From positions 74,441 to 138,440 of the forward strand of contig CAZWYM010000001.1 in assembly GCA_964638425.1 (NCBI GenBank): DNA of 64,000 nucleotides, read 5' to 3'. The translations under genes and the position numbers were made by a program. Below the pieces are notes generated by a model that worked only from the letters and a program-made list of their open reading frames with translations, searched no databases and was not told the origin of the DNA. The stretch is from an uncultured Candidatus Saccharibacteria bacterium. GTDB taxonomy: Bacteria; Patescibacteriota; Minisyncoccia; Phycocordibacterales; UBA918. Shown here piece by piece: positions 21,046-47,544 of the stretch. The stretch's first letter is position 1. Each line of letters opens with the position of its first letter.

Positions 21046-21694
21046 ATCCTTAAATGATAGCAGATCTGTGTTTAAAAGTGAGTTGCGTTTCTCCAGAGCG
21101 CTGCCAGACTTGGAATCTCTCTCATTACATGAGCAGTACACCTTGTCGATATTTTGTTTCCTTACATCACAAAATATCTGGCAAGGTCTTCGAGGTCAGG
21201 GACTCGTCCCGCTTTTTCTAGTTCACTTCGTTCACAAGAACGCTGGACGCGGCTCGCTGTTTCGTCGCAAGCTCCTCATATCGCTCCGCCGTTCGAGTCC
21301 CTGACTGGCTAGCAACGACAAAGGCCACAGACGTATTCACGTTTGTGGCCTGTCGATTGCTGCCAGTCAGGGACTCGAAGCTTACAGCTTCAGTTCAGGT
21401 TGTATGATATTTTCTTTCAGAAAATCTCGACAACCTCCTTAAAAGTCTCCCAGACTTTTAAGCCCCAATAAAATGCGAATGAGGCGTGTCCTAGAGCCGA
21501 ATGAGTGAGTGTGAAAGAAAATGTGTTGAGTTTCCACAGAGCGCTGGCCGTCTCGGGCTAGAACCGTAGGTGACCAAGCCCAGCTTGACGGAATCAGCTC
21601 ATTTTACACTACCTTACCGACGCGTCTCGTGCATCTCAAAAAGTGACAAAAGTGACACGGAACAGCCTGTAATAGTTACAGTCATCTGTAACTA

Positions 21695-22243
21695 TTAGTA
21701 CATACAAAGACCCGAAATAATTGGCGTTAGTACTCTATAAATACAAATAAGGTAGAACAAAACAAAGAGAATATATGCAATTATGGTCAATCTGCTTTCC
21801 CATGATGAGCCACCTTTCTCAAACCGCTTCCTATGCTCTTTGTATGCCTCCTGAAATTTTGTAATGAAATCGTAGGAGATAAAGACGAGTCCTGTACCCC
21901 ACAAGAACGTGAGGGCTTGGAGTCCTTCAGGTGTTTGGCTTTGGAGATCACAATATGTCTGTGCCATAAAAATGAGCACACCAAATCCAACGCTTGCATG
22001 TAGTAAGGCTTTGTATACTGCATAGCCAGATACAAGCATGATGACAGTGAGGACAAATCCAATGGAAGAAACAGCGACAATAGAAAGACCAGAAAGAAGT
22101 TGGTGATTGAAGTAGTTGTTGTCAGCAAATATCAGAGCAGTAAAAAGAACCGCAAAGATGAGCGGTACTAATTTCTCCTTATTAAACCCAAGTTTCATAA
22201 GTCCAACTATACGCCCACAATACGAGTCTGCAACTATACCCAT
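21695..22243 (-). CDS. 5-TM membrane protein; paralogue of 7994..8563; last gene of the LexA-TIR-caspase operon
   Basis: Overlaps the upstream gene by 10 nt; shares conserved blocks with 7994..8563. Confidence 0.5.
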   Translation of the reverse strand: MGIVADSYCGRIVGLMKLGFNKEKLVPLIFAVLFTALIFADNNYFNHQLLSGLSIVAVSSIGFVLTVIMLVSGYAVYKALLHASVGFGVLIFMAQTYCDLQSQTPEGLQALTFLWGTGLVFISYDFITKFQEAYKEHRKRFEKGGSSWESRLTIIAYILFVLFYLICIYRVLTPIISGLCMY

Positions 22244-22932
22244 TCTTCGGCCCGAGCATATTCAATCCTTGTTTTTGCGCCATCGAGTATCTTGTCATCG
22301 AGGGAGACTAGCGGTGGTTTCCCTCTCGCTGAGTACTCCAAGGTCTTGAATAGGTACCCCAGAAACGATCCTGTGTATCTACAGCACCGAATGCAACATC
22401 GTATTTTGTCGGGCACCTCGTCCTCATATCCTTTCCAACGATACATTTGTGGGTAACGATCTATCCAGTCGTCAGTAATGAATGTCACCCACTTTATAAG
22501 TTCCTCTTGAGCGCAGACGTTACCCCTTTGACCCAATCGCACCAAACGAATCACCATGCGATCTTGAATGTGTTTGTCGCGGTCATCTGCTGGCGAAAGA
22601 AAAACATACAATTTCTCTTTATATCTCTCAAGGATCAAGTCAACTTCTGTCTGACGTCGGTACGGTCGTGCCTGTTTATATCGATAGCGAATCCATCTTT
22701 TTTGATACTCACGGGAAATGTGACGAGTTAAAGAGTCCCAATCAATACTATTGTTTTCGTTACGTAAGTTCTGTCGTGCATATTGGTACACAGGTTTTGC
22801 ATGTATAAAAATCCACGAGCTAGTGAGTGCCGGTGGTTGCTTCTCGTCAAGAGCCTGATTAAGTAATGCAATAGCGGTACAAAAATCCATAAGTGCCCAT
22901 TTGGGACACTTATATTTTACCTTCTGAAACAA
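22234..22932 (-). CDS. hypothetical protein with CCxRCC cysteine cluster
   Basis: 232-aa ORF overlapping the caspase-like gene by 23 nt; contains DKIRCCIRCCRYTG; no recognised fold. Confidence 0.45.
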   Translation of the reverse strand: MFQKVKYKCPKWALMDFCTAIALLNQALDEKQPPALTSSWIFIHAKPVYQYARQNLRNENNSIDWDSLTRHISREYQKRWIRYRYKQARPYRRQTEVDLILERYKEKLYVFLSPADDRDKHIQDRMVIRLVRLGQRGNVCAQEELIKWVTFITDDWIDRYPQMYRWKGYEDEVPDKIRCCIRCCRYTGSFLGYLFKTLEYSARGKPPLVSLDDKILDGAKTRIEYARAEEWV

Positions 22933-23857
22933 GTCTCCAATAGTGGTATCCGAGAGCCGTTAACTTACAGGATTTTGAGTTTTGAGCTGCGTAATACATG
23001 TGTTCTTCCCCGACAGGGACAACTAGTCCAATGCTCACAAATTTCTGTAAATTTTTAAGGACAGCAACCTTTTCAGGTATGGCAATATCTTTATTATCAA
23101 ACTCATACGTAGGGTCTAATGCGTATTCTTGTTCAGGCGTTGGAAAATACTCTGTTATTTTTCTAAGCGTCTCTGTAGGAACAGGAGGATTTATAGTTCT
23201 CAATGAAGTGAATCTAGTTACATTAGTCTTAAAGACTGGACGTTGATCCCAAGGACCAAGCGCTTGATCAATGTAAGCATAAACACTTCCAGGAGTTATA
23301 TGACCCCTTAAGTCGGCGGCACCTCCTTGCAATGCATCAATAAGCAAACTAGTAAAAATTCCATGACCATTAATCTCCAAAGCAACTTCGCTATCACGAC
23401 TGGCAGTTAGAACAACTACACCTTCAATAATTTGAGTTGTCGGTGCGGTAGTTCCTGTAGTGACAGGTGAACCAAATGAACCTGAATGACAACAGTCAAG
23501 AATGATTATCTTGTCCTTTGATTTAGATTGGTTTGCAATAGTAAGAATTTGATCCATCGAAACACCCTCATCATTTAGTTTGTAATCTGGGGTTACTAAG
23601 TAACCACCAAGAGTGTTCAGGTACCCATGACCTGAAAAATATAAGAGGGCAATATCGCTATCGCCAGCAAAAAGCTCTTTAATCGCCGTCATAAGATCAG
23701 ATTTTGTTGGAACATCAGTCTCAAGTCTGACATCGAAGTTAGGTGATCCATCACCATTCTTGCTGATAGTATTTGCAAAAGCTGAAGCGTCATTAATGCA
23801 CCCTGTTAGAGGCGATTGTGGGTAGTTATTAATCCCAACTACAAGCGCTTTTCTCAT
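22910..23857 (-). CDS. caspase-like peptidase C14 (metacaspase/orthocaspase-like) with a C-terminal domain of unknown function
   Basis: KALVVGINNY...L.GCINDA start; catalytic His in YFSGHG; catalytic Cys in IILDCCHSG. Confidence 0.8.
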   Translation of the reverse strand: MRKALVVGINNYPQSPLTGCINDASAFANTISKNGDGSPNFDVRLETDVPTKSDLMTAIKELFAGDSDIALLYFSGHGYLNTLGGYLVTPDYKLNDEGVSMDQILTIANQSKSKDKIIILDCCHSGSFGSPVTTGTTAPTTQIIEGVVVLTASRDSEVALEINGHGIFTSLLIDALQGGAADLRGHITPGSVYAYIDQALGPWDQRPVFKTNVTRFTSLRTINPPVPTETLRKITEYFPTPEQEYALDPTYEFDNKDIAIPEKVAVLKNLQKFVSIGLVVPVGEEHMYYAAQNSKSCKLTALGYHYWRLVSEGKI

Positions 23858-23858
23858 A

Positions 23859-24230
23859 CTACAGTTTGTTGATGAATGACTTTATATTGTCCCAATTCCA
23901 AACATTAACAAGACGACCATTCAAAGAAGATGGAAGCATAGGTCTATCTGAACCTGTATACATAAGCATTACTGGTACTTTTTCTTCGTTCGCAGTCTTA
24001 ATTTCATACAATTCACCAGTCGCCCGTGGTGTGTTGTTACTGATAAGCGCAATCATTCCGTCACAACCCTTAATTTTTGTTCGACATTTAGACTCCCAAT
24101 CTGTTTCCCACGGTGTTTTTACGGACATATCTACAAACTCAAATGGTGAGTTGTCATTTTTTGCTTGACCTACAAGAAAGTCACGGAACTTTTTGTCTTC
24201 AACAGCGAATGCAATAAATATTCTTTTCAT
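23859..24230 (-). CDS. TIR-like domain protein (DUF1863/MTH538-like)
   Basis: RIFIAFAVEDKKF...MIALISNNTPRATGELYEIKTANEEKVPVMLMY follows the DUF1863 TIR-like pattern. Confidence 0.6.
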   Translation of the reverse strand: MKRIFIAFAVEDKKFRDFLVGQAKNDNSPFEFVDMSVKTPWETDWESKCRTKIKGCDGMIALISNNTPRATGELYEIKTANEEKVPVMLMYTGSDRPMLPSSLNGRLVNVWNWDNIKSFINKL

Positions 24231-24251
24231 AATATGTTGTGGTTAAATCAA

Positions 24252-24491
24252 TTAATGTTTTGTATCTTTCGGTGGGTTTGGGTCCTTGCCGTAACTATCC
24301 TTGTCGGTAATCGTTCCGTCTCTTTTATGTATCACATGCTCAACTTGTCTAGACCTCGCCTCTTTTATTGATTTATCAATGGCCGTTTCTTTGGTATGAG
24401 AACTTACGACCGGTTTCGATTGATTTTCGACTTTGGTTTCCCACATACTTCTATCCTTATTGTATACGGTATGAATATTTCTTTTGGTCAT
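24252..24491 (-). CDS. DUF2188 family small protein
   Basis: ...VIHKRDGTITDKDSYGKDPNPPKDTKH C-terminus is characteristic. The track ORF extends to 24548; the Met at 24491 is preferred. Confidence 0.6.
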   Translation of the reverse strand: MTKRNIHTVYNKDRSMWETKVENQSKPVVSSHTKETAIDKSIKEARSRQVEHVIHKRDGTITDKDSYGKDPNPPKDTKH

Positions 24492-24496
24492 AATAT

Positions 24497-25114
24497 TTAA
24501 TACAGATCTGATGGAAGTATCGCAACAACAACTCCTTGGATCTGACAATTATCGGTTAATATGATTGGTCTATACGTTTTATTGGATGATTTTGGTCTTA
24601 GGATCACCGCACCATCAGCTCTTTCAAAGTATTTGAGAGTTGTCTCATCATTGATGAGGGCAACAACTTTATCTCCAGTCTCTGCTGACTCTTGCTGTCG
24701 AATGAGTAGAAGGTCACCACTATTGATACCAGCAAGATTCATCGAGTCGCCCATAGCACGCAAAAGAAAATAAGTAGAACCACTTCTCGCCATCTCAGTT
24801 GAGACTGGAATGTAGTCTAAAATATTTTCCTCGGCTAGCATTGGAGTACCACACGTCACTGCACCTACTAGGGGTACGTCAATCGTGTTAACTGAATTAT
24901 TGAGCCTCGGGGATGTTAAGACGAGACTTCGCCCGCTTCGCTTCACAAGTCCTGCTTTTTCTAAGCGATCAATTACTAGACTGGCTGATCGGGGTGATTT
25001 ACCGCCAGTAACCTCATTGATCTCCTGTAGGGTAGGGCTTTTGCCATACGTAGTAATCTTGTTGCGGATAAGTCCAAGGGCTTTCTTGTCTTTGTCACTG
25101 AGATTATTTATCAT
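24497..25114 (-). CDS. lexA: LexA repressor (wHTH + S24 peptidase)
   Basis: N-terminus ALGLIRNKITTYGKSPTLQEINEVTG...PRSASLVIDRLEKAGLV is LexA-like. S24 Ser-Lys dyad (GDSM, TTLKYF). Confidence 0.8.
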   Translation of the reverse strand: MINNLSDKDKKALGLIRNKITTYGKSPTLQEINEVTGGKSPRSASLVIDRLEKAGLVKRSGRSLVLTSPRLNNSVNTIDVPLVGAVTCGTPMLAEENILDYIPVSTEMARSGSTYFLLRAMGDSMNLAGINSGDLLLIRQQESAETGDKVVALINDETTLKYFERADGAVILRPKSSNKTYRPIILTDNCQIQGVVVAILPSDLY

Positions 25115-25174
25115 GGTATAAATAGTATAACAAATGCTATACAATCCAGCAAACAGTGCTAAAATTAGGATACT

Positions 25175-25843
25175 ATGAGTAATGAATCAGAGAAAGAATA
25201 CAAAGTACAGATACCTGAGAGTCTACTCTCTTTCACGCAGTTTCCTGATCTCTCTGCTATTCAAAAGTCACTTAAGCCAATTTTTGAACAACGTGAGACT
25301 TTTCTAAATTTAGCTAAAAGTATGAAGCCAATTGCAGATATGGCTGTACAACTCCAGAAGCGGTACAAGCAACATAATTCTCTTACACGTGAAATGGTTA
25401 TTCCGTATCACCGACCTGTTGAGTACAAAATTTTGGATGAGCTGAGAAGCATCAATGAAAACCAACAAGAGATAACCAAAAATCAGCAAGCTATACTTGA
25501 TCTCCGTGAAGATGGTGTCGATTGTATCATTTATGATGTGGGGGATGGATCACTCTCACATGTGCTGGGTGGGAGTAATTTTTCGTACGACATGACGAGT
25601 GATGGAAAACGAAAGCAAATGTTTGAGATACTGTTTCGGACTAGGAAGTATGTAAATACAAATGACTTAAAGGAGTCATTGGGGTGTCCGTCAACACAAG
25701 CGGTGGCAAAGATTGTACAGACGTTTAATGCCTACGCGAGTGACATGCTTCGGCTTAACGGTGAAAAACTTATTCAAGGGAGGAAAGGTTCTGGCTATCG
25801 AATTAATCCGAAAATAAGAGTTGAGAGCAGTCGAAATTATTAG
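25175..25843 (+). CDS. hypothetical protein; first gene divergent from lexA
   Basis: 222-aa ORF with its own downstream terminator. Confidence 0.45.
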   Translation: MSNESEKEYKVQIPESLLSFTQFPDLSAIQKSLKPIFEQRETFLNLAKSMKPIADMAVQLQKRYKQHNSLTREMVIPYHRPVEYKILDELRSINENQQEITKNQQAILDLREDGVDCIIYDVGDGSLSHVLGGSNFSYDMTSDGKRKQMFEILFRTRKYVNTNDLKESLGCPSTQAVAKIVQTFNAYASDMLRLNGEKLIQGRKGSGYRINPKIRVESSRNY

Positions 25844-25872
25844 GTGGACATCAAGGTGAGTGGATAATACAG

Positions 25873-25905
25873 AAAACAGCCTTTTAAAATAAGGCTGTTT
25901 TCATT
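25873..25905 (+). terminator. rho-independent terminator
   Basis: aaaacagcctt ttaaaataa ggctgtttt followed by a T-run. Confidence 0.6.
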
Positions 25906-25931
25906 TATCGACTCCATCTGGTGTCTATTAC

Positions 25932-27269
25932 GTGACTAGGTATCTATTTGCTTTGATAGAGCCATATCAACATAAGCAAGTAGTTATGAAGAAACTAATT
26001 TGGCATACCGCACAGAAACGAGTGAACGATCTTGTTCCGCAAGAAATTAATCCCCGCAAGATCACTGACGTACAGATGAAGGCTCTAACTGTGAGTCTGA
26101 GGAAATTTAATCTAGTGGAAATACCAGCTATTGATGCTGACGGTACTATCCTCGCTGGACACCAGCGTATCAAGGCACTCCAGCTCTTGGGTCGAGGAGA
26201 AGAGTTAATTGACGTACGAGTACCAAACCGCAAACTCACTAAAAAGGAGTCAAAGCAGTATCTCATCGGCTCAAACAAGCTTGGTGGCTATTGGGACTAT
26301 GATCTTCTCAAGGCGTTCGATATGGACACTTTGTCTTTTGCTGGCTTTGAGTCAATGGAACTAGCGAAGTTTTGGGATGAGGACAACGCTACCAAGGATG
26401 ATGACTTCAATGTAGAGAAGGAGCTAAAGAAGATTGTTATCCCAAAGACTAAGCTCGGCGATATTATCCATCTCGGACGGCATAAGCTCATTTGTGGTGA
26501 CTCCACAAAACCTGAAACTCTTGCACGACTCTTTGGTAATGAACGAGCGTCGATGATTTATTCAGATCCAGTGTACAACATAAAAATTAATTACGACGGT
26601 GGTATTGGTGGCAAAAAAGATTATGGTGGCAATGTCAATGATTCTCGTACCTTTGAGGAATACAAGACATTCATCAAAGATAGCTTGAGTTCCGCACTAG
26701 CAGTCTCAGACCCGAATACTCACGTCTTCTACTACTGCGATCAAATCTATATAGGACTGATTCAGGAGGTATACCGATCACTAGGTATTGCCAATAAGCG
26801 AGTGTGTTTGTGGCTTAAAAATTCTCAAAATCCTGTCCCGAAAGTATTTTGTAACAAGGCATATGAGCCTGCTGTTTACGGTGTGCGTGGTAAACCTTAT
26901 CTCGCAGGTAGTATTCAGGATTTAAACGAAGTTCTCAATAAAGAGTTTGGAACTGGTAATGAACTAGTTGCACAAGTTGATAGCTTTCTTGAAATATGGA
27001 CTGCCAAACGACTCTCTGCTAAAGACTATCAGCACGCTACGTCTAAACCCATCACACTCCACGAGAAAGCGATTAAACGCTGTACCAAACCAAACGACAT
27101 TATCCTCGATAGCTTCCTTGGTTCTGGTAGTACGCTTCTTGCCGCTGAACAGCTGGGTCGTCGAGTGTATGGCTGTGATCTTGAACCGAGATTTTGCGAT
27201 CTCATCATTAACCGCTTTGAAGCTCTGACTGGCACAAAGGTAACTGTTGAACACTATGAAGAAAAATAA
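25932..27269 (+). CDS. ParB-like nuclease domain fused to N4/N6 DNA methyltransferase (phage-type orphan MTase)
   Basis: ParB/Srx N-terminal domain (LAGHQRIKAL), DPPY-like motif SDPVYN, SAM motif DSFLGSGST. Alternative start at 25986. Confidence 0.8.
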   Translation: MTRYLFALIEPYQHKQVVMKKLIWHTAQKRVNDLVPQEINPRKITDVQMKALTVSLRKFNLVEIPAIDADGTILAGHQRIKALQLLGRGEELIDVRVPNRKLTKKESKQYLIGSNKLGGYWDYDLLKAFDMDTLSFAGFESMELAKFWDEDNATKDDDFNVEKELKKIVIPKTKLGDIIHLGRHKLICGDSTKPETLARLFGNERASMIYSDPVYNIKINYDGGIGGKKDYGGNVNDSRTFEEYKTFIKDSLSSALAVSDPNTHVFYYCDQIYIGLIQEVYRSLGIANKRVCLWLKNSQNPVPKVFCNKAYEPAVYGVRGKPYLAGSIQDLNEVLNKEFGTGNELVAQVDSFLEIWTAKRLSAKDYQHATSKPITLHEKAIKRCTKPNDIILDSFLGSGSTLLAAEQLGRRVYGCDLEPRFCDLIINRFEALTGTKVTVEHYEEK

Positions 27270-27669
27270 ATACCAAGAGCAGTTTCTCCTAGAGCTAGCC
27301 AAAGTACCGATTGTTCAAGTTGCGTGCGAAAAAACAGACTTATCACGCAATACGATATACCGTTGGCGGAAAGAAGACGTTTCGTTTGCTAAGAAAATGG
27401 ATCAAGCACTAGCTGATGGCGTGGCTTTGGTAAATGACATGGGTGAAAGCCAGCTTCTTACCCTGATTAAGGAAAAGAACTTCCCAGCGGTGCGCTTTTG
27501 GCTCAATAAACGTCATCCAGCATACAAAGACAAAATTGAAGTTACGACTAAAGAGGATATTGAAGCACTAACGCCGTCACAGGCAAAGATTGTAAGGCGA
27601 GCTCTTAAGCTCGCTTCAATTACCAAAACCACTTCCATTAAAAAGATAAATACTAAACATCATGAATAA
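27247..27669 (+). CDS. putative terminase small subunit (HTH)
   Basis: Small basic HTH protein immediately upstream of the terminase large subunit, overlapping it by 8 nt. Confidence 0.45.
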   Translation: MNTMKKNKYQEQFLLELAKVPIVQVACEKTDLSRNTIYRWRKEDVSFAKKMDQALADGVALVNDMGESQLLTLIKEKNFPAVRFWLNKRHPAYKDKIEVTTKEDIEALTPSQAKIVRRALKLASITKTTSIKKINTKHHE

Positions 27670-29152
27670 AATTATTCCCAACGCACTGGTGAACAAGATG
27701 CTGAAAGACCGTCTGATCCGTACATCTATCACCAAAGACAGTTTCCTCTACTTCTTCCACTTCTACTACGCCCACTACGTGAAGTACGAAACGGCAGACT
27801 TCCAAAAAGAAATTATTCACCATCTTGAAAGTAGTCCTACTGAGAACTTCTACGTTGTCGCTTTTCGTGGATCAGGTAAATCCACAATGGTTACCACCGC
27901 CTATCCAATATGGGCAATCCTCGGTAAACAACAAAAGAAGTTCTGCATTATCTTCTGTCAGACACGGGCACAGGCGAAGCAACACATGATGAACATCCGC
28001 ACTGAGCTTGAGGGAAACGATCTGCTTAAAAAAGATCTTGGTCCGTTCCAAGAAGAGAGTGATGAATGGGGTTCGCATTCACTAGTATTCAGAAAACATG
28101 GTGCTCGGATTACGGTTGCTTCGAGCGATCAGAGTATTCGTGGACTCCGCCATAACGAACACCGACCCGACCTTATCATTTGTGACGACGTTGAGGATGT
28201 ACAATCTACCAAGACTCGCGAAGGTCGGGAGAAAACCTATAACTGGCTTCGAGGTGAAGTAATTCCATCAGGTGATAAAAAGACTCGGCTAATTATTGTT
28301 GGAAACCTTCTCCATGAAGATTCTCTTCTCATGCGTATTAAAGAGGAGATTGGAAAAGGAAAAGCCAAGGGAGTATTCAAGGAGTACCCGCTTCTCGATA
28401 AAAATGATGTCTGTCTTTGGACTGGGAAATACATGGACGTAAAAGATATCGAGGACGAGAAGCTCAAAGTTGCGAGTGATATCTCGTGGCAACGTGAGTA
28501 TCTCCTTCGAATTATTCCAGCAGAAGATCAGGTTATCTATCATGATTGGATACAGTACTACGATGAACTTCCTCCAGTGAGTCATCGTGCTTTTCGTGGT
28601 CGGTATGCAGCCGTTGACTTGGCTATATCTGAAAAAGATTCAGCAGACTATACCGCTCTTGTGTCGGCGCACATTTATGGACGACGAGAGAAGTTGCGCA
28701 TATACATTCTCCCCAATCCAATAAATAAGCGACTCAATTTTCCAGCACAAGTCGATTTGCTAAAAGACTACAAACTTACCTATATGCCGAGTAGCTATGA
28801 TCTTATGTTTGTAGAGAGTGTTGCGTATCAAGAAGCACTTCCGCAGATGCTTGAGCTACACGGGATTGACGCTGAAGCCATAAAGCCAAAAGGTGATAAG
28901 CGAACACGATTATCGCTCACTTCGACTTCAATAAAGGCAGGTGTCATTAAGTTTCCTCGGCAGGGATGCGAGCGCTTGATAGAACAATTGGTTGGATTTG
29001 GAGTCGAAAAACACGACGATCTGGCAGATGCGTTTTCACTGCTCGTAAATGCTACACTTAAAAAACATATGGACGAATCTACGTGGTTAATGGCAAGTAT
29101 GGAGAGTACTCTTTTCTACAGTGACTATATTGATGTTGAAACAGGTAAATAA
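27662..29152 (+). CDS. phage terminase large subunit
   Basis: Walker A AFRGSGKST; ATPase plus C-terminal RNaseH-like nuclease layout with acidic residues (DDLADAF). Confidence 0.8.
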   Translation: MNKIIPNALVNKMLKDRLIRTSITKDSFLYFFHFYYAHYVKYETADFQKEIIHHLESSPTENFYVVAFRGSGKSTMVTTAYPIWAILGKQQKKFCIIFCQTRAQAKQHMMNIRTELEGNDLLKKDLGPFQEESDEWGSHSLVFRKHGARITVASSDQSIRGLRHNEHRPDLIICDDVEDVQSTKTREGREKTYNWLRGEVIPSGDKKTRLIIVGNLLHEDSLLMRIKEEIGKGKAKGVFKEYPLLDKNDVCLWTGKYMDVKDIEDEKLKVASDISWQREYLLRIIPAEDQVIYHDWIQYYDELPPVSHRAFRGRYAAVDLAISEKDSADYTALVSAHIYGRREKLRIYILPNPINKRLNFPAQVDLLKDYKLTYMPSSYDLMFVESVAYQEALPQMLELHGIDAEAIKPKGDKRTRLSLTSTSIKAGVIKFPRQGCERLIEQLVGFGVEKHDDLADAFSLLVNATLKKHMDESTWLMASMESTLFYSDYIDVETGK

Positions 29153-29157
29153 CGTGG

Positions 29158-30192
29158 TTACTCACACTGCGGACTCTTTGTTCGTTGGTATGAAGCAAGG
29201 AGTTCCTCAAGTGAGTTAAAGGATTTAAGATTTGAAGCACTGAGACTTTTCCAGCCATCACAATCTTCAGGATAGTAGTATTTCGCACTGTAATGTGAGG
29301 AAGTGTAGTATTTCGTTCCAGAAGTATTTGATACTGGAACGGCTGTATTTGTCTGTGTGTCCGTCTCAACCGCTGTTCCCGTAAGCGGATCACCGTCACA
29401 TGTATTCGATGACCATAATCCTTTTTCGGAGCTACGTGCACTTTCTTGTGCCGATTTAAATTCTGCCTGATATTTATACGCTACGTTGTATGTGTACTCA
29501 TACGCATATCCTTCTGTAATCATGTGTTTGTTGAAGAAAAGTCCATCATCTCGAAATACATACACAAGGAGTCGTCCATATTTATCACGAGTATCTTGCG
29601 TGGAGTCAGATTCAATACGCACACTCTTTCCTAAAAGGAGCTGTTTTGCCATGTTAGATGCTTCTTTTCCAAAACACTGCACGGGCTTTCGTGGATCAAC
29701 TGTTTCAGGCGTATCAATACCAATGAGTCGGAGTGTTTCAATGACTCCGTCTTTACGAATTTTAATAGTATCTCCATCAACGACATCAGTAATTGAATAA
29801 GTATCACCGTTTGTAACGGGTTGTTCTGTTGGAGTAATTTGAGAGGTGTTGTCGCCAGTTTGAACATTTGTATTTAAAACAGCTGGTGAGTCGGTACTTT
29901 CCAATACTTGTTCTTGCTGTGTTTCTCCCTCACTTAAAATGGATTCTGATTCAGTTACTTGCGTCTCAATGATTTTGTTCTCGCTCAATTCTCTCGGTTG
30001 TGTCGGTTCACCAAAAATATTTCCTATGAGACCGATTATAAAAAGAGTAATAAGTGCCAAATATATTGGATGTCGTTTCATCCATCGTATATACGATTTC
30101 TCTGCACCTGAGGTGCTTTGTGTTTGATCTGTATTCATAATGTGCTTGATAGGACTTAAATTTAAAGTAGCGAGATACAAAAAGCCCGCCAC
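29158..30192 (-). CDS. thermonuclease (SNase-like) family protein, membrane anchored
   Basis: DGDTIKI...RLIGIDTPE...GRLLVYVF...NKHMITEGYA matches SNase motifs. Confidence 0.75.
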   Translation of the reverse strand: MAGFLYLATLNLSPIKHIMNTDQTQSTSGAEKSYIRWMKRHPIYLALITLFIIGLIGNIFGEPTQPRELSENKIIETQVTESESILSEGETQQEQVLESTDSPAVLNTNVQTGDNTSQITPTEQPVTNGDTYSITDVVDGDTIKIRKDGVIETLRLIGIDTPETVDPRKPVQCFGKEASNMAKQLLLGKSVRIESDSTQDTRDKYGRLLVYVFRDDGLFFNKHMITEGYAYEYTYNVAYKYQAEFKSAQESARSSEKGLWSSNTCDGDPLTGTAVETDTQTNTAVPVSNTSGTKYYTSSHYSAKYYYPEDCDGWKSLSASNLKSFNSLEELLASYQRTKSPQCE

Positions 30193-30280
30193 GGGTAGAG
30201 GGCGAACCCTCTCGTACCAGTTTCCCGATACGGCCTATCAAGCAACCCCATGACGGGTTTTTTATGCTTGATAGGACTTT
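30144..30280. repeat. 15-bp direct repeat tgcttgataggactt (30144-30158 and 30266-30280) with an inverted copy at 30233-30246, in the nuclease/recombinase divergent region
   Basis: Seen directly. Confidence 0.5.
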
Positions 30281-30476
30281 TCGCCATGCCTCGGATAACT
30301 CTGAGGTTTAGGCTACTTCTATATATTCTGTTGTTGCACAATGATAACAGATTTTGCTACCGATTTACACCTTAACGCACAGATGCTGTTTTGTTAAGAG
30401 TATGACGCGAGTATGCGTCGTTTATCTAGTTCTGCATAGACTATGCACCACTGATGGTTCTGTCATTAATGGTCGT

Positions 30477-31826
30477 ATGGAAACACAAGTGATTAACAAT
30501 TTCGGTGTTAAGACGGAAGTACCGGCCACACCAGTTCGCTACGTCTTGTATGCGAGAAAAAGTACCGAAGATTCCAGCGAGAAACAAGCACTTTCAATCG
30601 ACTCTCAAGTCAAGGAAATGCTCGCAATTGCAGAGCGTGAGGGGTTAGACATAATTGATATACGGCGCGAAGCACACTCCGCAAAAGACTCCGGGCAACG
30701 ACCAGTCTTTAATGAGATTTTAAGAGATATAAAATCAGGAAGATACAACGGAGTGGCAACGTGGAGTCCGGATCGCCTAAGTCGTTGTGGGGGTGACTTA
30801 GGTTCACTTGTTGATCTTATGGATGAGAAACATTTAATTCAAATCAGGACATATGGACAGACATTCACCAATACTCCAAGTGAAAAGTTTTTACTGATGA
30901 TCCTGTGTAGCCAAGCTAAATTAGAAAATGACCAAAAAAGTATCAACGTGAAGCGAGGACTTAAGACCAGAGTAGAAATGGGATTGTGGCCTGCACCGGC
31001 ACCAACGGGGTATATCAAAGAGAAACGGATGGACAGAAAGTGCGAGACTTTGATAGATCCAGACAGAGGTCATATTATTAAGCAAGTATTTGATAAAGTC
31101 GCATACGAAAAATGGAGTGGTCGAAAAGTATATAACTGGCTAAAATTTGATTTGAACTTTAAAACAGCTGGAGGGAACAAAAATCTTTCGTTGAGCAATA
31201 TATTTGTAATACTTCAAAATCATTTCTATTACGGTGTATTTGAATATCCAAAAAAAAGTGGCAACTGGTACAAAGGAAAACATGAACCGCTTATATCAAA
31301 AGAACTCTTTGATGCAGTCCAGATGCAAGTAAAGAGTCAGTTTGTCCGATCTGAGAATAAAGAGTTTGCATTCACCAAGCTCATGACATGCGGACTCTGT
31401 GGTTCAGGTATCTGTGCTGATGAGAAGTTCAAGAAACAGAAAAATGGGAATGTGCATCGACACGTATATTACGGGTGCACCAAATCAAAAGACAAAAACT
31501 GCAGGTGTGGCTATATCAACGAAATTGATCTTCTCAAACAATTTGAAGAGCTGATGGATAAAATTGATATAGATGAGATAGGTATCAAACAAAAATTGAA
31601 AGAAGAAGTGGAACGATTCAAAAAGTTCCAGAGAGTACTACTAGGAAAACCAACTCAAGTGACCGTTGAGGAGGTTGATATACGAAATTATGCAAAATAT
31701 TTACTCAGGGAAGGTAAGGATGTAGAGAAGAGAGAATTGCTAGGATGCATAAATAATACAATATATTTAGCAAGTAAAATAATAACTCTACAGATGAGTA
31801 AAAATTGCTTTATTATTGAAGAATGA
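30477..31826 (+). CDS. large serine recombinase (resolvase/invertase catalytic domain + recombinase domain + zinc ribbon)
   Basis: YVLYARKSTEDSS...LSIDSQ catalytic region; ATWSPDRLSR; C-terminal CGLCGS...YYGC zinc ribbon. ORF opens at 30354; Met at 30477 chosen. Confidence 0.8.
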   Translation: METQVINNFGVKTEVPATPVRYVLYARKSTEDSSEKQALSIDSQVKEMLAIAEREGLDIIDIRREAHSAKDSGQRPVFNEILRDIKSGRYNGVATWSPDRLSRCGGDLGSLVDLMDEKHLIQIRTYGQTFTNTPSEKFLLMILCSQAKLENDQKSINVKRGLKTRVEMGLWPAPAPTGYIKEKRMDRKCETLIDPDRGHIIKQVFDKVAYEKWSGRKVYNWLKFDLNFKTAGGNKNLSLSNIFVILQNHFYYGVFEYPKKSGNWYKGKHEPLISKELFDAVQMQVKSQFVRSENKEFAFTKLMTCGLCGSGICADEKFKKQKNGNVHRHVYYGCTKSKDKNCRCGYINEIDLLKQFEELMDKIDIDEIGIKQKLKEEVERFKKFQRVLLGKPTQVTVEEVDIRNYAKYLLREGKDVEKRELLGCINNTIYLASKIITLQMSKNCFIIEE

Positions 31827-31861: not shown

Positions 31862-32359
31862 TCAATTATTTTTTTGCAAAATTGATAATCGGTCTGCGTA
31901 GTGTATTCGTACCAAACTCACCACATACGATGCGAGTGTAACTGCACCTATCGCAATACCTACACTACCAACAACATCTATGCTGTGATGTACATTTGCC
32001 AGTACGCGAGAAATGCCAACGCCGACAGCAAGTATCGCAAGTACTACTCCAAGAACTTTATTCTCCGTGTACACGAGGGCAGAAATTGTGGCAACCAGGA
32101 GCGTGTGCTCCGATGGAAAACCATTGTCGGGTATATGAGCAATGAGGGGTTGTATATTTTCAACCACAAAAGGACGAGGGTTGGAAATGAATAAACTAGC
32201 AAGTCGTCCCAGTAGAAAGGCTATAGGGAGTGCCACAATCACTCTTCCTACAAAGATAATTCTTCTCTGCGTAGGTAGTATCAGAAGAAATACAATTCCC
32301 GTCAGCACAATGCCTACGTGTAGTTTGGTTGCGAAGAAAACAGTGATTGCATCCATCAT
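31862..32359 (-). CDS. PAP2 family phosphatase (undecaprenyl-diphosphatase-like)
   Basis: PAP2 motifs PSEH and SRVLANVHHSIDV. Confidence 0.7.
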   Translation of the reverse strand: MMDAITVFFATKLHVGIVLTGIVFLLILPTQRRIIFVGRVIVALPIAFLLGRLASLFISNPRPFVVENIQPLIAHIPDNGFPSEHTLLVATISALVYTENKVLGVVLAILAVGVGISRVLANVHHSIDVVGSVGIAIGAVTLASYVVSLVRIHYADRLSILQKNN

Positions 32360-32360
32360 A

Positions 32361-34289
32361 TTATTTGGTCGAAAATAGTCTCAAACTATTGAGAATAACA
32401 ATAAGTGCCATTCCTGAATCTGCTGCAATGGCAACGACAAGATTCGACATACCGAAAATTACTAGTATGAGAAATACGACTTTCACACCCAGAGCGAGAG
32501 CGATATTTGCTCGAATGACAGACATGGTCTTTCGTGCAAGCCGTATTGCATATGGAATGGTTTCCAAGTTTCCTGAAAGGAGAGCAATATCAGCAGTCTC
32601 TATTGCGACATCAGTACCCCCTGCACCAATTGCAAAGCCCACATCAGAAAGTGCGAGTGCCGGTGCGTCATTAATGCCATCGCCCACCATTGCAATGGTC
32701 CCGTATGTCTGTTTTTGTGTTTGCACAACTTCCACCTTTTCCTCAGGTGAAAGAGACGCGTGAATATCCGTAATACCAACGGTCTTTGCCACAGCTGTAG
32801 CACTGTGCACGTTGTCTCCCGTAAGCATAGAACTCTGCACCCCGAGACGCGTGAGTGATGCGATTACACTTTGTGCTTCCTCACGCACAACGTCAGAGAT
32901 ACCAATGGCACCAATGACCTGTTTTCCTTCTGCAACGAGGACGACCGTCTTACCCTCTTTTTCTAGACGTTCTACGTCTTGCATGAATACACCGTCTTCA
33001 ATCCCATACTCACGCATCATTTTTGTGTTGCCTATGTAGTTGTGAGCATCACATATCGAACACTCTGCATGCCCGCCCTTACCAGCGACATTTTCATACG
33101 TATGCATAACGTGTGGAATAATGTTCTGTTCTTTTGCATACGTGAGAATAGATTCTGCGAGAGGATGTGACGAGAATTGTTCAATTCCTGCTGCATCAGC
33201 AATTACATCGTCCTTACTATGATCGCCGAATGTTACGACATCAGTGACACGGTGGCGACCGAAGGTAAGGGTGCGTGTTTTATCGAATGCGATACTTTTT
33301 AGTTTTGCGAGCTTCTCAAGATACACACCACCCTTTACGAGTACTCCATGTCGCGATGCTCCTCCTATTGCTGATGCAATAGCGACAGGTGTGGAAATCA
33401 CGAGTGCGCACGGACAGGCGATTACCAAGAGCACCAATGCGCGATACAGCCATGTATCAAATGATTGACCAAAGAGAAATACTGGCACTGTTGCAACGAG
33501 CATTGAAAGAACGACGACCGCTGGCGTGTAGTACCGAGCAAACGAGTCGATGAACGCTTCGGTGGGTGCTCTTGAAGCTTGCGCTTCTTTCACCAATGCG
33601 ATAATTCGAGCAAACATGGAATCATCGCTTCTCTTCACAACCATGACCTCGAGATATCCTTGGATGTTCATTGTTCCTGCAAAGACGGTATCTTTCACCT
33701 GTACCTCAACAGGAGCAGATTCACCGGTGACCGCTGACGTATCAATGGAGGATGACCCTTTCGCCACAGTTCCATCAAGCGGTATCTGCACTCCGGGTCG
33801 GACGACAACAATTGAACCTACGGTGACGCTCTCAACAGGAACAATAGTTCCATCAAGAAGCTCTGCTGTTTTTGGTGAACGTTCTATGAGCGCAGCAACG
33901 GCACGCTTCGATCGCTCAATGCCAAAAGACTCAAACAACTCAGAAAGTGAAAATAGAAATATGACTGCGGCTGCCTCACCATATTCACCAATATACAAAG
34001 CGCCAATCGAAGCGATGACAACGAGAAAACTAATATTAAGAAATCGCTGTTTCAGGAGTCCTCGCACTGCACTACGAACTACAAACACTGACCCTACCAG
34101 TATCGATAGAATATAGAACACCGTGCTCCATCCTTGGGAAAGTGAAAACGAGCTCAAAAAACCAACTGCCAGCAGGAGACCAGCAATGGGTGTAAGTGTC
34201 TTGAGTATCTGCGTAGAGGAAAAGAAGTTAGTCTGGTGAGATGATTCGTCATGTTCACAATGGTCGCATCGTGTATGTTCGTGTGCCAT
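32361..34289 (-). CDS. heavy-metal (Cu/Zn-type) P1B-type ATPase
   Basis: His-rich N-terminus, TM CPC motif (ACPCALVISTP), phosphorylation loop FDKTRTLT, hinge VGDGINDAPAL. Confidence 0.9.
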   Translation of the reverse strand: MAHEHTRCDHCEHDESSHQTNFFSSTQILKTLTPIAGLLLAVGFLSSFSLSQGWSTVFYILSILVGSVFVVRSAVRGLLKQRFLNISFLVVIASIGALYIGEYGEAAAVIFLFSLSELFESFGIERSKRAVAALIERSPKTAELLDGTIVPVESVTVGSIVVVRPGVQIPLDGTVAKGSSSIDTSAVTGESAPVEVQVKDTVFAGTMNIQGYLEVMVVKRSDDSMFARIIALVKEAQASRAPTEAFIDSFARYYTPAVVVLSMLVATVPVFLFGQSFDTWLYRALVLLVIACPCALVISTPVAIASAIGGASRHGVLVKGGVYLEKLAKLKSIAFDKTRTLTFGRHRVTDVVTFGDHSKDDVIADAAGIEQFSSHPLAESILTYAKEQNIIPHVMHTYENVAGKGGHAECSICDAHNYIGNTKMMREYGIEDGVFMQDVERLEKEGKTVVLVAEGKQVIGAIGISDVVREEAQSVIASLTRLGVQSSMLTGDNVHSATAVAKTVGITDIHASLSPEEKVEVVQTQKQTYGTIAMVGDGINDAPALALSDVGFAIGAGGTDVAIETADIALLSGNLETIPYAIRLARKTMSVIRANIALALGVKVVFLILVIFGMSNLVVAIAADSGMALIVILNSLRLFSTK

Positions 34290-34297
34290 ATAAATGT

Positions 34298-35110
34298 TTA
34301 ATTATTATGTGTGTAAATTCTTTGATCGGTACTGAGTCTTTTTTGAAATTCTCGCAAAATAAAGAGACTTACGTCATCCATCGTAGTATGCCCACCACGA
34401 AACGGTTTTTCAATGACTTGAATGAGTCGATAGATGTACATAAACAGGTAGGAAATGAAGCCGAGTAAAAATGCCGATTCGATGGAACCCTCTGTCTTCA
34501 GAAACAAGAGCAGACCGATGACACCAAATATCAATGTCGTTGCTAATGTATGTGCTGAGGGAAGAAACATTGTGCGTTGAATGTGGTACACACGCAACAC
34601 ATGTTTACGTAAGAGCGACTGCTCATTTTCAAGTCGTACAATGTAGTTGGCGGGCATACCCAGTGCCTCCATCTGAGAGAATTGGTTTGATAGCGCATTG
34701 ATAGAATCAACACATGGTTGTAAATCATGATGTCCTCCTTGATGTGATACCCCTGAAATAAAATCTTCAGTAATTCGCTGCAACACTTGTCGTGTACTTT
34801 CTAAGTCAAAAGTAGAATTTTTCTGCTTAAACACAAGTGCCTTTTCGTAGATACTCTCTAGTGTTGAGCGAAATTCAACTGGAAATTTATCTGCTTCCTT
34901 ATAATCTGCAATAATGCCCGAAAGAAGAAATCCTATGATAAATACCACACCACCAATAGCACTCGTGAAAAGTGCGTTGAGTGTGAAGATTTCCAATCCA
35001 AAGTAGTGAATGCCCGCTTTGACAAGAAGTAGTGCACTTACCCCGATTACGGTAAATACACTGACTGAGGAAATCAATGACGTGAGTGATTCTTTATTCT
35101 CGGTATACAT
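34298..35110 (-). CDS. hypothetical membrane protein (possibly bestrophin-like)
   Basis: Four TM helices with a cytosolic helical domain; assignment is weak. Confidence 0.35.
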   Translation of the reverse strand: MYTENKESLTSLISSVSVFTVIGVSALLLVKAGIHYFGLEIFTLNALFTSAIGGVVFIIGFLLSGIIADYKEADKFPVEFRSTLESIYEKALVFKQKNSTFDLESTRQVLQRITEDFISGVSHQGGHHDLQPCVDSINALSNQFSQMEALGMPANYIVRLENEQSLLRKHVLRVYHIQRTMFLPSAHTLATTLIFGVIGLLLFLKTEGSIESAFLLGFISYLFMYIYRLIQVIEKPFRGGHTTMDDVSLFILREFQKRLSTDQRIYTHNN

Positions 35111-35113
35111 ATA

Positions 35114-37264
35114 CTACTCTGAAAAATTATTCTCTTGTAATAGTTTTCTTAGTGTCCTTGAGTAGATTGTTACATCGTATTCATCTTTAAGTTTTGCAGA
35201 GAGGCCTAGAGCCAGATCCTCGTGCTTTTGGGCCATAATCGCCTCACGAATAAACTCCTTGGCCTGTTCAAAAGCAATGAGTTCTGGATTTGTGCGTTCG
35301 AGCACTTCGACAATATATAGGTAACCATTTGCCTCGAATGGTCGACTGATTTCCCCGACTGCGGTCGCCAATACTTCTGCGTGATATCCGTGTTCGGAGA
35401 ATTCGCCGAGCAATTCATTACTCTCAGACACCCATCCGTTCACTTCTCCTCCGTTCGTCTTCGTCTCCTCGTCTTCAGAATATTCGTTTACCACAGTGGC
35501 AAAATCGCTGGCTTCACCAAACGCACCGGGCACGAGTTTTTTATATGCCTCTTCTGCCTTATTCATTGCCTGAGTGTGTTCCTCTTCCGATTCGCCAGAA
35601 CGGATCGCAATCTGCCGCACGCGCGATTTCGGCGGGAGCATAAGTTGATCTTTCCTTTCATCGTAAAAGGCACGCAGTTCAGCGTCATCAACAGTGATTT
35701 TTTCGTCAACTTCTTCTTGCTCGAGCATCTGCGCGAGCACTTTGAGTTTCATTTCATCTATTTTTTCCTGCGACTTTGTTTGTGAGACTTTAGTAATACT
35801 GTCTTCATAAATGAGCATTCGTTCAATAATGCGTTCAACCAAATTTTGTTTCCCCTCAATGCCAGTGTATGTGGCTAGAAATGATGAAGGTAATTCTTGA
35901 TACTCACTCCAAAAATCACCGAGTGTTAACTGTTTGCCGTTTAGTGTCACGAGCACACGATCGGCATTGTCAGCATAATATTTCTCTTCAGTAGTTCGAT
36001 ATACTTGATCAAAGATTTCTGTCCATACTTCATCAAAGGCCCGTTGCCGTGGTGGGTTTTTCTTTGTCACTTGTGCAATAGTAAATCCGTCACTCGTTTC
36101 AAGCACATCACTTATCCTACCTACTTCAAGACTGAAGAGCGTTGACTCGTATGTAGTATCCTGTGACGATCCTCGCGCGATTGTATGCGGTTCCGACGTC
36201 AGACCATCCATCTGTTCTGTCATTGGTGGAAATCCTGCTCCAGAGCGGATTGCCGTTATGAGCGCGAGAGCACGCTCTCGCGCCTGTTCTTTGTTTGAAC
36301 CTAATGGGATATGAATCTCATTCACCTCAATCTGCTCTGGAATGTTAAAACTCTGTGCGTTCTCAGTGTAATATGCAAGTAACGAATCTTCAGTTGGTTG
36401 CGGAGCAGCGAGAATTCCCATATCTCTTGTGATAGATGCTCTTTGTTTCAGTGAAGCAATGTAATCTGCAACAAATGTATCCTCATTCGCATTTTTCAAA
36501 GTATCTTCTATTTCTTTTCTTACATCGGTGAGCGTTCGATCACCAAATGTCTCTTTATTTGCTTCATAGTATGCCTGTATATCGCCCTCACTGACGCCAA
36601 GTTGACCCTCGTGCATTTGCGTATGTAACTCATCAAGATTTATTTCCTCGGCAATATGTTGCATCGTGTGTGAAAATCCATCTCCTTGGTCTGGCTGTTG
36701 TGTTGCTTGCCCTTGCTGTACTAACGTATCACTTACCATGTCCTCGAGTATTGATGCATATCCGTTAGGTGTGCGTAGTCGCTCCTGCGCTGACTCATCA
36801 CTTACAAGTGTTTTGAGGTGCTCCTCAACATCTTCTATAGTAATTTGACCACCACTCCACGTCACGAGAACATTTGGTGCTGGTGGATACGGAGCGAAAA
36901 GAATGTCTTTGAAAAATACCGCGATTGCTAAAATCAGCACGAACGCTCCTATAACTATTTTTCTTTTCCAAAATGGGCGTTGCTGTGAGAACGGGGCGTC
37001 TTCAGTATCTGAAACATCTACGGATACGTCTGGTGTTGCTATATTGCTTGGTTCATTCGGTGTCTGGATACTATTTATTTGATTGGTAGATTCTGTACGT
37101 ATTTGACTATCATCAGACGACATATCTGACGACAAGGGACTCTTGTTGTCATCAGTAACGGAAGATACACCAAGTGCCACTCGCATATCAGCCCACACTT
37201 GTCGCCACGTATGGGAACGTGTCGGTACTGTTTCATTATTTTTGTATTCTTGATTGTCAGACAT
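35114..37264 (-). CDS. membrane-anchored peptidyl-prolyl isomerase/chaperone of PpiD/SurA type (two parvulin-like domains)
   Basis: N-terminal TM; two parvulin-like segments (…FTIAQVTKKN…, …GYLYIVEV…). Confidence 0.55.
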   Translation of the reverse strand: MSDNQEYKNNETVPTRSHTWRQVWADMRVALGVSSVTDDNKSPLSSDMSSDDSQIRTESTNQINSIQTPNEPSNIATPDVSVDVSDTEDAPFSQQRPFWKRKIVIGAFVLILAIAVFFKDILFAPYPPAPNVLVTWSGGQITIEDVEEHLKTLVSDESAQERLRTPNGYASILEDMVSDTLVQQGQATQQPDQGDGFSHTMQHIAEEINLDELHTQMHEGQLGVSEGDIQAYYEANKETFGDRTLTDVRKEIEDTLKNANEDTFVADYIASLKQRASITRDMGILAAPQPTEDSLLAYYTENAQSFNIPEQIEVNEIHIPLGSNKEQARERALALITAIRSGAGFPPMTEQMDGLTSEPHTIARGSSQDTTYESTLFSLEVGRISDVLETSDGFTIAQVTKKNPPRQRAFDEVWTEIFDQVYRTTEEKYYADNADRVLVTLNGKQLTLGDFWSEYQELPSSFLATYTGIEGKQNLVERIIERMLIYEDSITKVSQTKSQEKIDEMKLKVLAQMLEQEEVDEKITVDDAELRAFYDERKDQLMLPPKSRVRQIAIRSGESEEEHTQAMNKAEEAYKKLVPGAFGEASDFATVVNEYSEDEETKTNGGEVNGWVSESNELLGEFSEHGYHAEVLATAVGEISRPFEANGYLYIVEVLERTNPELIAFEQAKEFIREAIMAQKHEDLALGLSAKLKDEYDVTIYSRTLRKLLQENNFSE

Positions 37265-37269
37265 ACCTA

Positions 37270-38385: not shown

Positions 38386-38398
38386 AGTATGTTACTAA

Positions 38399-39334: not shown

Positions 39335-39356
39335 AAAGGTATAATTTTAAAAGTTA

Positions 39357-40862: not shown

Positions 40863-40894
40863 ACACGTTACATTAAATTAATAAAGGTACGATA

Positions 40895-42790: not shown

Positions 42791-42804
42791 ATTATGTGTG
42801 ATGA

Positions 42805-43551: not shown

Positions 43552-43571
43552 GCGTACCTCTGTATGATTAA

Positions 43572-44645: not shown

Positions 44646-44651
44646 AGAAGT

Positions 44652-45860: not shown

Positions 45861-45877
45861 ACAAGGTAATGTGCCAC

Positions 45878-47027: not shown

Positions 47028-47089
47028 ATCTACAAAAAACTACACGGATAATGACTCTCAATATGAAGAGAATCAAATATTCTGTGTAG

Positions 47090-47500: not shown

Positions 47501-47544
47501 TTCATAAGTATAGCAAATAATCTTTAAATTAAAACACGTCTCAC

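Follow-up and report, generated by a model that had tools for sequence, protein, structure and literature searches.

A block of seven genes at positions 24497-31826 of the window, by which the whole 64,000-nt stretch of DNA from an uncultured Candidatus Saccharibacteria bacterium is meant, encodes both subunits of a phage-type terminase and a large serine recombinase. This block, which is the object of the present study, is best explained as the core of an SOS-type-repressed integrative island that packs its DNA by its own terminase into the capsids of a helper phage, an explanation that is favored here with somewhat better than even confidence. The observations that carry it are the conservation of the family, purifying selection, ends that are defined by tRNA sequences, tandem copies, mosaic exchange, the lack of structural genes and the layout of the repressor and operon. 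Related genes for the large terminase subunit (TerL) were taken from 80 species genomes and some further contigs, and the loci, which are labeled with L-numbers, were compared by tblastn and by clustering of all open reading frames (ORFs). Annotation covers recurrent gene clusters of about 85 loci, though not every one of these clusters, and very few of the single-copy ORFs. The genes of the block are listed below.

24497-25144, minus strand: LexA-type S24 autocleaving repressor (PF00717 Peptidase_S24, 4.6e-28, and PF01726 LexA_DNA_bind)
25175-25843, plus strand: 222-aa protein, probable regulator (AlphaFold2 and Foldseek)
25932-27269, plus strand: fusion of a ParB-N domain with an N6/N4 DNA methyltransferase (PF01555; phrog_498, 2e-81; phrog_620 ParB-like, 1e-20)
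27247-27669, plus strand: TerS, helix-turn-helix (HTH) small terminase subunit (phrog_4044, 5e-9, among the PHROG TerS families)
27662-29152, plus strand: TerL, large terminase subunit of the T7-like clade (phrog_38, 2e-75, residues 15-467)
29158-30192, minus strand: SNase, membrane-anchored staphylococcal-nuclease-like protein, cargo (PF00565, 4.5e-27; PADLOC candidate C3a212 'SNc+LTD', 3e-46)
30354-31826, plus strand: large serine recombinase (PF00239 Resolvase, PF07508 Recombinase, PF13408 Zn_ribbon_recom; phrog_95 integrase, 5e-59)

Gene content of the block

The Pfam and PHROG matches agree with the positions and domains that a sequence-only reading of this DNA had assigned to the seven ORFs, and the coordinates of the TerS and TerL genes agree with the overlap of 8 nt that it had described. 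The lexA gene on the minus strand is divergent from the plus-strand genes, which run from the 222-aa ORF onward, as that reading had also stated, and the two are separated by a 60-nt region. Its further claim that the block contains no capsid, portal or tail gene holds as well, because none of the window proteins scanned against the Pfam and PHROG families, which include most, but not all, of those encoded by ORFs of 100 aa or more, matches a structural or lysis family. The family to which it had left TerL to be assigned is phrog_38, within the T7-like clade.

TerL is, as judged from its sequence, composed of an N-terminal Walker ATPase and a C-terminal RNase-H-like nuclease, both of which appear intact. 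The residues G70-T75, D175, D176 and E178 of the Walker A and B motifs, and the residues D319, E385, D452, D453 and D456 of the nuclease, are invariant. The matches of TerL in the PDB are weak (8dgc and 4bij), and a PDB sequence search gives no match for TerS or the 222-aa protein. The AlphaFold2 model of the 222-aa protein has a mean predicted local distance difference test (pLDDT) score of 74.5, which exceeds 85 across residues 120-220, and shows long helices in the N-terminal part, with a winged helix of the OmpR/PhoB type. Foldseek matches this model to the DNA-binding domains of RitR, ToxR, CadC, AdeR and PhoP, and the 222-aa protein is probably a transcription regulator. In many related islands the slot of this first gene is occupied by an unrelated 137-aa protein. 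This common variant and several cargo proteins have no match in PHROGs and Pfam.

The repressor probably starts at the ATG at 25114, which gives a protein of 205 aa that matches the length of its homologues. Its translation shows a Cys-Gly cleavage site (VTCG) and the serine (GDSM) and lysine (TLKYF) of a Ser-Lys dyad. The probable start of SNase is at 30138, and that of the recombinase is at 30402 or 30477. SNase occurs in only 6-7 related loci. A recombinase directionality factor is not identified.

Conservation and selection of the terminase module

The protein collection contains more than 3,500 relatives of TerL, of which the best 120 are 77-99% identical to it, and those that bear names are from Patescibacteria. 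An exhaustive search gives 456 cluster representatives at E <= 1e-30, indicating that the clade is large. The 80 source genomes have Patescibacteria-type titles, save a few that are seemingly mislabeled. Complete genomes that carry an island include CP011215.1 and CP175956.1, and the exact island of the window is also present in the samples SRR12762276 and SRR12762296.

Nearly all loci share the order of a minus-strand repressor gene, a small variable gene, the ParB-methyltransferase gene, TerS, TerL, 0-8 kb of variable genes and the serine recombinase gene. The ParB-methyltransferase gene is found in 75 of the 79 loci with a full TerL. It is of two sequence types, which are either ~45% or 75-92% identical to the copy of the window, while the identity of TerS across the loci is 56-77%. 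The pairwise ratio of nonsynonymous to synonymous substitution (dN/dS) lies at 0.02-0.03 in TerL and at 0.04-0.06 in the recombinase, and the methyltransferase has values of 0.03-0.14. Structural genes are not detected among the annotated recurrent clusters of the ~85 loci, and no structural cluster is seen within 10 kb in any locus. The contigs of IMG/VR that contain TerL relatives with identities down to 38% keep the same module without capsid genes. At an identity of ~30%, the gene for a TerL relative is followed by the portal, head-morphogenesis and major head genes. The nearest TerL of an isolate phage is 26% identical.

Island ends and integration site

The features that delimit the island are listed below.

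21100-21114, plus strand: left direct repeat and attL candidate, GCTGCCAGACTTGGA (15 nt), an exact repeat that copies the tRNA-Gln 3' end
21115-21617, no strand: spacer with degenerate tRNA-like fragments, as read from the sequence; 120-260 nt in related loci
21618-21632, plus strand: terminal box CGACGCGTCTCGTGC, which recurs in the right end at 48379-48393
21640-21693, plus strand: left terminus, two copies of AAAGTGACA (21640-21657) followed by the hairpin AGTTACA-N6-TGTAACT (21674-21693)
48379-48429, plus strand: right end and attR candidate, formed by the terminal box (48379-48393) together with the repeat of the tRNA 3' end (48415-48429)
48413-48486, minus strand: tRNA-Gln(CTG), the presumed integration target, with its 3' end facing the island (ARAGORN and Rfam)

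The only exact copies of GCTGCCAGACTTGGA in the window start at 21100 and 48415, and 0.14 chance matches are expected for this sequence with up to two mismatches. The related islands have boxes of the form GAC-NNN-TCTCG(T/A)GC at both ends. Their left end is nearly invariant and consists of the 18-mer AAAGTGACAAAAGTGACA followed by AAAGTTACA-N6-TGTAACT. In 47 of 91 loci, the AAAGTGACAAAAGTGACA sequence is present as an exact single copy on the plus strand, at a distance of 0.7-7.5 kb to the left of the methyltransferase gene. With up to three mismatches it is present in 65 of 87 sources, and the loci that lack it are mostly cut off on that side. All copies with up to two mismatches are located on the plus strand and left of the module, save an inverted second copy in L025. 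A second terminal motif is not found elsewhere in the window. The left terminus with the AAAGTGACA repeats is a candidate for a packaging site or an accessory site for recombination.

Loci that bear an island commonly contain a minus-strand tRNA gene with its 3' end toward the island, for Gln, Glu, Ser, Trp, Lys, His or Asn. The tRNA-Gln(CTG) gene is located right of the island also in L001, L009, L018, L019, L029, L045, L050 and L077. Repeats of 15-29 nt from the 3' end or trailer of a tRNA bound islands of 12-27 kb in seven loci (L009, L027, L043, L047, L067, L073 and the window), and in all of them except L067 the left copy, which repeats the tRNA 3' end exactly, precedes the terminal motif by 120-540 nt. 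In L067, a 17-nt trailer-box repeat adjoins the terminal motif. The box TCTCGTGC(TAGCACGA) abuts the island side of the island-associated tRNAs, and a related box, which is CGACGCGTCTCGTGC in the window, stands just ahead of the left motif. The possibility that this box is a general tRNA trailer is rejected, because it is carried by only 2 of 21 other tRNAs checked, none of which is located at the right end of an island. These two tRNAs may border further islands.

Thus placed by the terminal motifs and direct repeats, the ends are located at 21.10-21.69 and 48.38-48.43 kb, and the island of the window most likely spans ~21.10-48.43 kb, up to the tRNA-Gln gene, with a length of ~27 kb. The sequence-only reading had set its limits at 5.9 and 31.8 kb, with att sites to be sought around 5.9 and 31.85 kb. 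These limits find no support. The junction between the recombinase gene and the following PAP2 gene at 31.83 kb is rejected as the right end, because neither a repeat nor a tRNA fragment is present there.

The identity of the recombinase is 75.9% among islands flanked by the same type of tRNA and 62.3% between types (permutation p < 0.0005), whereas neither TerL nor the methyltransferase groups in this manner. The clustering of the recombinase by tRNA type indicates that the recombinase is tied to the choice of the target. The direct repeats of tRNA ends point, together with this clustering, to the recombinase as the candidate integrase and excisionase, although an attP junction or an empty site is not seen.

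Two further observations concern the ends. A tRNA-Ser with the unusual anticodon ACT is called by ARAGORN beside the islands of L026, L032, L033 and L073, and may be either a miscall or an atypical tRNA. A small minus-strand gene, whose product begins with MNQEDKRNPKNWTKEE and has no Pfam or PHROG match, starts at the AAAGTGACA repeats and is positioned immediately left of the terminal motif in L001, L008, L010, L014, L016, L018, L019, L028, L046, L065, L070, L076 and L077. This gene is missing from the island of the window, in which the tRNA-like fragments take its position.

Mosaic evolution and copy number

The pairwise distances of TerL correlate with those of TerS (rho 0.67), whereas the corresponding rho values are 0.12 for the methyltransferase, 0.11 for the recombinase, 0.23 for the repressor and -0.14 for the flanking ATPase. 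A contig that encodes a 99% identical TerL is 97% identical to the window at the nucleotide level from the first base of TerS rightward, and is unrelated to it leftward. Mosaic exchange of this kind, as it appears from these comparisons, is typical of mobile elements. Tandem islands are present in L010 and L046, two copies of the module (L099 and L100) are present on one viral contig of 39 kb, and two diverged copies (L026 and L036) are present on different contigs of one metagenome-assembled genome (MAG). These multiple copies point to integration that has happened repeatedly.

Regulation

The 60-nt divergent promoter region contains a candidate operator, which is unique in the window.

25124-25142, plus strand: candidate operator AGTATAACAAATGCTATAC (AGTATAA-N6-CTATAC)

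This region is conserved among the loci with a LexA of the type found in the window. At the same place, other islands encode an S24 repressor of another kind or else an ImmR/ImmA pair (XRE-HTH and M78, ImmA/IrrE). S24 repressors and ImmR/ImmA pairs are both well-known switches of mobile elements that can be induced. The AAAGTGACA repeats were also considered as the operator of the repressor, and are rejected because the type of the repressor varies and the motif is constant. Two independent assemblies of the island of the window both break at 25124, where the candidate operator starts.

LOOT RNA

An RNA motif that is absent from the sequence-only reading is located between the SNase and recombinase genes.

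30187-30324, minus strand: LOOT RNA (Rfam RF03000), with the Rfam match at 30197-30314 (94.8 bits, with the gathering score at 46.4)

The match is full-length (model positions 1-121 of 121). A covariance model made for this study detects LOOT RNA in 39 of 86 sources. In most of them it adjoins the recombinase gene, being located either just upstream of it on the opposite strand or 60-90 nt downstream of it on the same strand, and in each case it is directed into a cargo slot. In an alignment of 38 distinct sequences, 96.5% of the cells are paired and 30 of the 33 pairs show compensatory changes, with a covariation score of 0.93 as compared with ~0.1 in slid controls. LOOT RNA was named for its position beside terminase genes in metagenomic sequence, which is the only earlier trace of such an element that is known to us. 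The motif is now assigned to a defined element, in which it is mostly located beside the serine recombinase gene. Promoter and terminator scans near LOOT RNA and the left end of the island give nothing informative. The segment of L049 at 12020-14562, which consists of the recombinase gene, LOOT RNA and the SNase gene, is inverted relative to TerL when it is compared with 29158-31826 of the window, and in other loci the recombinase gene alone is flipped relative to LOOT RNA. These arrangements hint at inversions mediated by the recombinase.

Cargo and neighboring DNA

The islands have three variable slots that hold genes of anti-phage defense, which in the window are those for TIR-caspase and SNase. 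The slots are located left of the repressor gene, between TerL and the recombinase gene, and right of the recombinase gene. The two outer slots of the window contain the following genes.

21695-24548, minus strand: left cargo, consisting of 182-aa and 232-aa proteins of no assigned family, a caspase-like C14 peptidase (22910-23857), a TIR-like protein (23859-24230) and DUF2188 (24252-24548) (Pfam and PADLOC)
31862-48285, no strand: right segment, consisting of PAP2, a P-type metal ATPase, a PpiC-like protein, three SPFH proteins, a CDF efflux protein, an M23 peptidase, a SurA-like protein, two DsbA-like proteins, cysteine desulfurase and PrsW (Pfam)

The left-cargo cassette is located left of the repressor gene also in L013, L026, L031, L033 and L035. 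Its TIR-like and caspase-like (C14) part (21695-24230 of the window) is 66-89% identical across the loci, and is accompanied by the 232-aa protein in the window, L013, L026 and L033. This cassette is a candidate defense system, the whole of which is covered by no single PADLOC model. The cargo of other islands includes CBASS (CD-NTase and Cap15), Thoeris (ThsA-macro and ThsB), type I and type III restriction-modification (RM) systems, and MmeI/Eco57I-type pairs of a methylase and an SNF2 helicase. Diversity-generating retroelements (DGRs) with a reverse transcriptase (PF00078), and mostly with an Avd-like protein (phrog_3206), are found in L011, L020, L021, L025, L039, L040, L046, L047, L051, L061, L084 and L085, mostly between TerL and the recombinase gene. 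Several of these loci also encode a 311-aa candidate target protein. The defense cargo probably pays for the retention of the island.

The GC content of the right segment is 0.433, which is between that of the island core (0.413) and those of the flanks (0.455-0.457). At least 12 related loci have parts of its gene set right of the recombinase gene, where the order of these genes varies. The right segment may be either cargo or trapped chromosomal DNA.

The block at 5.9-21.1 kb has a GC content of 0.406 and contains the genes for Fic/DOC, a KAP P-loop NTPase, a type I RM system (HsdR, HsdS and HsdM), DUF1653, a glyoxalase-like protein and DUF1428. The KAP NTPase is QatA/PifA-like in PADLOC, and is preceded by a paralog of the 182-aa protein of the island. 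The RM, KAP and Fic cassettes had been taken as parts of the same island. Their membership is rejected, because the block lies outside the repeats and the window has no second terminal motif; the block has neither a terminal motif nor a recombinase of its own. The GC content of both regions is indeed lower than that of the flanks, but the reading of the two as one island does not survive, and the 5.9-21 kb block is probably a separate accessory region. Elsewhere in the window, a full-length group I intron (Rfam, 72 bits) is located at 57611-57805 on the minus strand between protein-coding ORFs, just upstream of an NTP-transferase ORF, of which the Pfam domain begins only at residue 107.

Discussion

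The steps of induction, excision, packaging, dependence on a helper and transfer are proposed as follows. In the resident state, the LexA-type self-cleaving repressor would silence the divergent operon for the winged-helix regulator, the ParB-methyltransferase, TerS and TerL, and it would be removed upon DNA damage or phage infection. The large serine recombinase would then excise the island from the 3' end of the tRNA-Gln gene. TerS and TerL would recognize a site specific to the island. The AAAGTGACA repeats at its end are the foremost candidate for such a terminase site, since no other part of the island apart from TerS and TerL is invariant to a similar degree. The terminase would fill procapsids of a helper phage with island DNA, and such procapsids would be needed because the island has no structural genes. 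The methyltransferase would protect the island DNA in advance from restriction in the next host, in which the recombinase would integrate the island again at a tRNA gene. A MAG that contains one of the related islands (L011 in MAG nzgw467) is described as having three predicted prophages and one genomic island (PMC12455944). The prophages of this genome may be possible helpers, or one of them may in fact be the island, included in the count as a prophage.

The island resembles phage-inducible chromosomal islands (PICIs), which include the Staphylococcus aureus pathogenicity islands (SaPIs), and phage-inducible chromosomal minimalist islands (PICMIs) in that it is site-specific with direct repeats at both ends, has a master repressor divergent from the main operon, and carries a TerS of the kind that redirects packaging, with accessory and defense cargo and without structural or lysis genes. 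It shares with PICMI the lack of a recognizable replication module. In contrast to PICI, in which a tyrosine integrase is encoded beside the divergent repressor, its sole recombinase is of the serine type and is encoded at the far end of the core. It also differs from PICI and PICMI in having complete TerS and TerL, a ParB-methyltransferase and LOOT RNA, in lacking primase-helicase, AlpA and capsid-size genes, and in having hosts of the phylum Patescibacteria. Capsid-forming PICIs (cf-PICIs) likewise encode both TerS and TerL, so that only their own DNA is packaged, but they have capsid, portal, protease and head-tail connector genes, none of which is found among the window proteins scanned or the annotated clusters of the related loci. 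The PICI-like element (PLE) of Vibrio cholerae is an anti-phage satellite that integrates via a large serine recombinase (PMC6002521), as the present island seems to do, and it interferes with the packaging of its helper. PLE differs in that it has no terminase, integrates into integron repeats instead of tRNA genes, and has no other genes in common with the island. Tycheposons and other cargo islands that target tRNA genes form tandem arrays at these genes and have partial tRNA repeats and variable cargo, but they have tyrosine recombinases and replication modules, and are not known to encode a terminase. In its proposed working, the island is most like the PICI and PICMI satellites, yet it lacks features that define the known systems, namely a tyrosine integrase, a replication module and capsid genes. 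A literature search gives no description of a terminase island or satellite of Patescibacteria.

Several points weigh against a packaged satellite. The core proteins and the annotated recurrent clusters include no recognized primase-helicase or other replication gene, and we know of no helper phage for the islands. The function assigned above to the AAAGTGACA repeats is a guess. An attP junction, an empty site or an excised circle is not seen, and the collected contigs have no terminal overlaps. The repeats of the window are short (15 nt), and large serine recombinases are, to our knowledge, not typical integrators into tRNA genes. The stretch of 16.6 kb between the recombinase and tRNA genes resembles ordinary genes for the envelope and metal homeostasis. 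The median identity of TerL across the family is 74%, which is unusually high for a gene of a mobile element. Finally, the nucleotide identity between the window and L036 is 69% for the core and 68% for the shared flanking genes, and this equal divergence fits long vertical co-inheritance.

The last point also favors the explanation that the module is domesticated and largely immobile, serving a host function either as a device like a gene transfer agent with its structural genes elsewhere or in DNA processing, with a neighborhood that is a defense hotspot. Purifying selection on it is very strong, TerL is more conserved than its neighbors, the module is usually present in one copy per genome, the neighborhood of the metal-ATPase cluster and tRNA-Gln recurs, and the repressor has the full LexA architecture. 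This explanation is nevertheless considered unlikely and is opposed by the flanking direct repeats of tRNA and the conserved termini, by tRNA targets that differ and covary with the recombinase, by tandem and double copies, by the swapping of regulators and the uncoupling of the two-type methyltransferase from TerL, and by the sharp recombination breakpoint in a nearly identical relative. It is quite improbable that the core is itself an anti-phage system, in which the terminase, once a phage infects, would compete for phage DNA and procapsids or cleave them (packaging interference), with DNA being labeled as self by the methyltransferase and with mobility as a secondary trait. The module is located amid defense systems in nearly every locus, the repressor would sense damage or infection, and known satellites interfere with the packaging of their helpers. 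However, TerL has no PADLOC match and the methyltransferase matches only generic methyltransferase models, while the recombinase, att repeats and conserved termini are left unexplained. Moreover, an anti-phage role of the core is compatible with a satellite and does not replace it.

Only a slim chance is given to an island that moves independently of capsids, by natural transformation or vesicles, with a terminase that only cuts or resolves island DNA. Such a route would account for the lack of structural and replication genes and of a known helper, and for the strong mosaicism by homologous recombination, but complete TerS and TerL with an intact translocating ATPase under strong selection are hard to explain without a capsid. 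The sequence-only reading had offered either a decayed prophage or a satellite-like element. A prophage remnant stripped of the genes for structure and lysis would explain phage-type genes without structural genes and a GC content slightly below that of the flanks. The same minimal gene set is, however, found in ~80 species, down to 38% TerL identity, and pseudogenes are not found, with a dN/dS of 0.02-0.06. Structural remnants, relaxed selection and sporadic content, which mark a defective prophage, are not observed; the content is conserved and intact. The conserved order in ~80 genomes, the low dN/dS and the invariant catalytic residues of TerL therefore exclude a decayed prophage to the extent that its probability is close to negligible. 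The satellite-like element, the other half of that proposal, is the best supported explanation, though short of proof.

For the capsid-packaged satellite, a wider interpretation is put forward tentatively, at somewhat less than even confidence, in which the islands are the first recognized phage-satellite lineage of the Candidate Phyla Radiation (CPR): a very large family of capsid-less terminase islands with a complete terminase, a ParB-methyltransferase, a tRNA-targeting serine integrase and LOOT RNA, which is the main shuttle and store of defense systems across Patescibacteria. In the boldest version of this interpretation, LOOT RNA would be a packaging or regulatory RNA of the terminase machinery.

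Patescibacteria, which are ultra-small bacteria, represent a large share of bacterial diversity. Only one phage has been described for them and the defense systems identified in their genomes are few (PMC12366544). Through the island, the orphan LOOT RNA gains a genomic setting, and the islands supply both serine integrases whose tRNA targets can be predicted and a candidate packaging site open to direct tests. It is an element that has both terminase subunits and no capsid genes and persists under strong selection, a gene set that is present in none of the satellites compared (PICI, PICMI, cf-PICI and PLE). It also maps a site at which the defense genes of Patescibacteria (CBASS, Thoeris, TIR-caspase, RM and DGR) are stored and exchanged, and is an entry point to the mobile elements of Patescibacteria and to a predicted hidden set of their helper phages.

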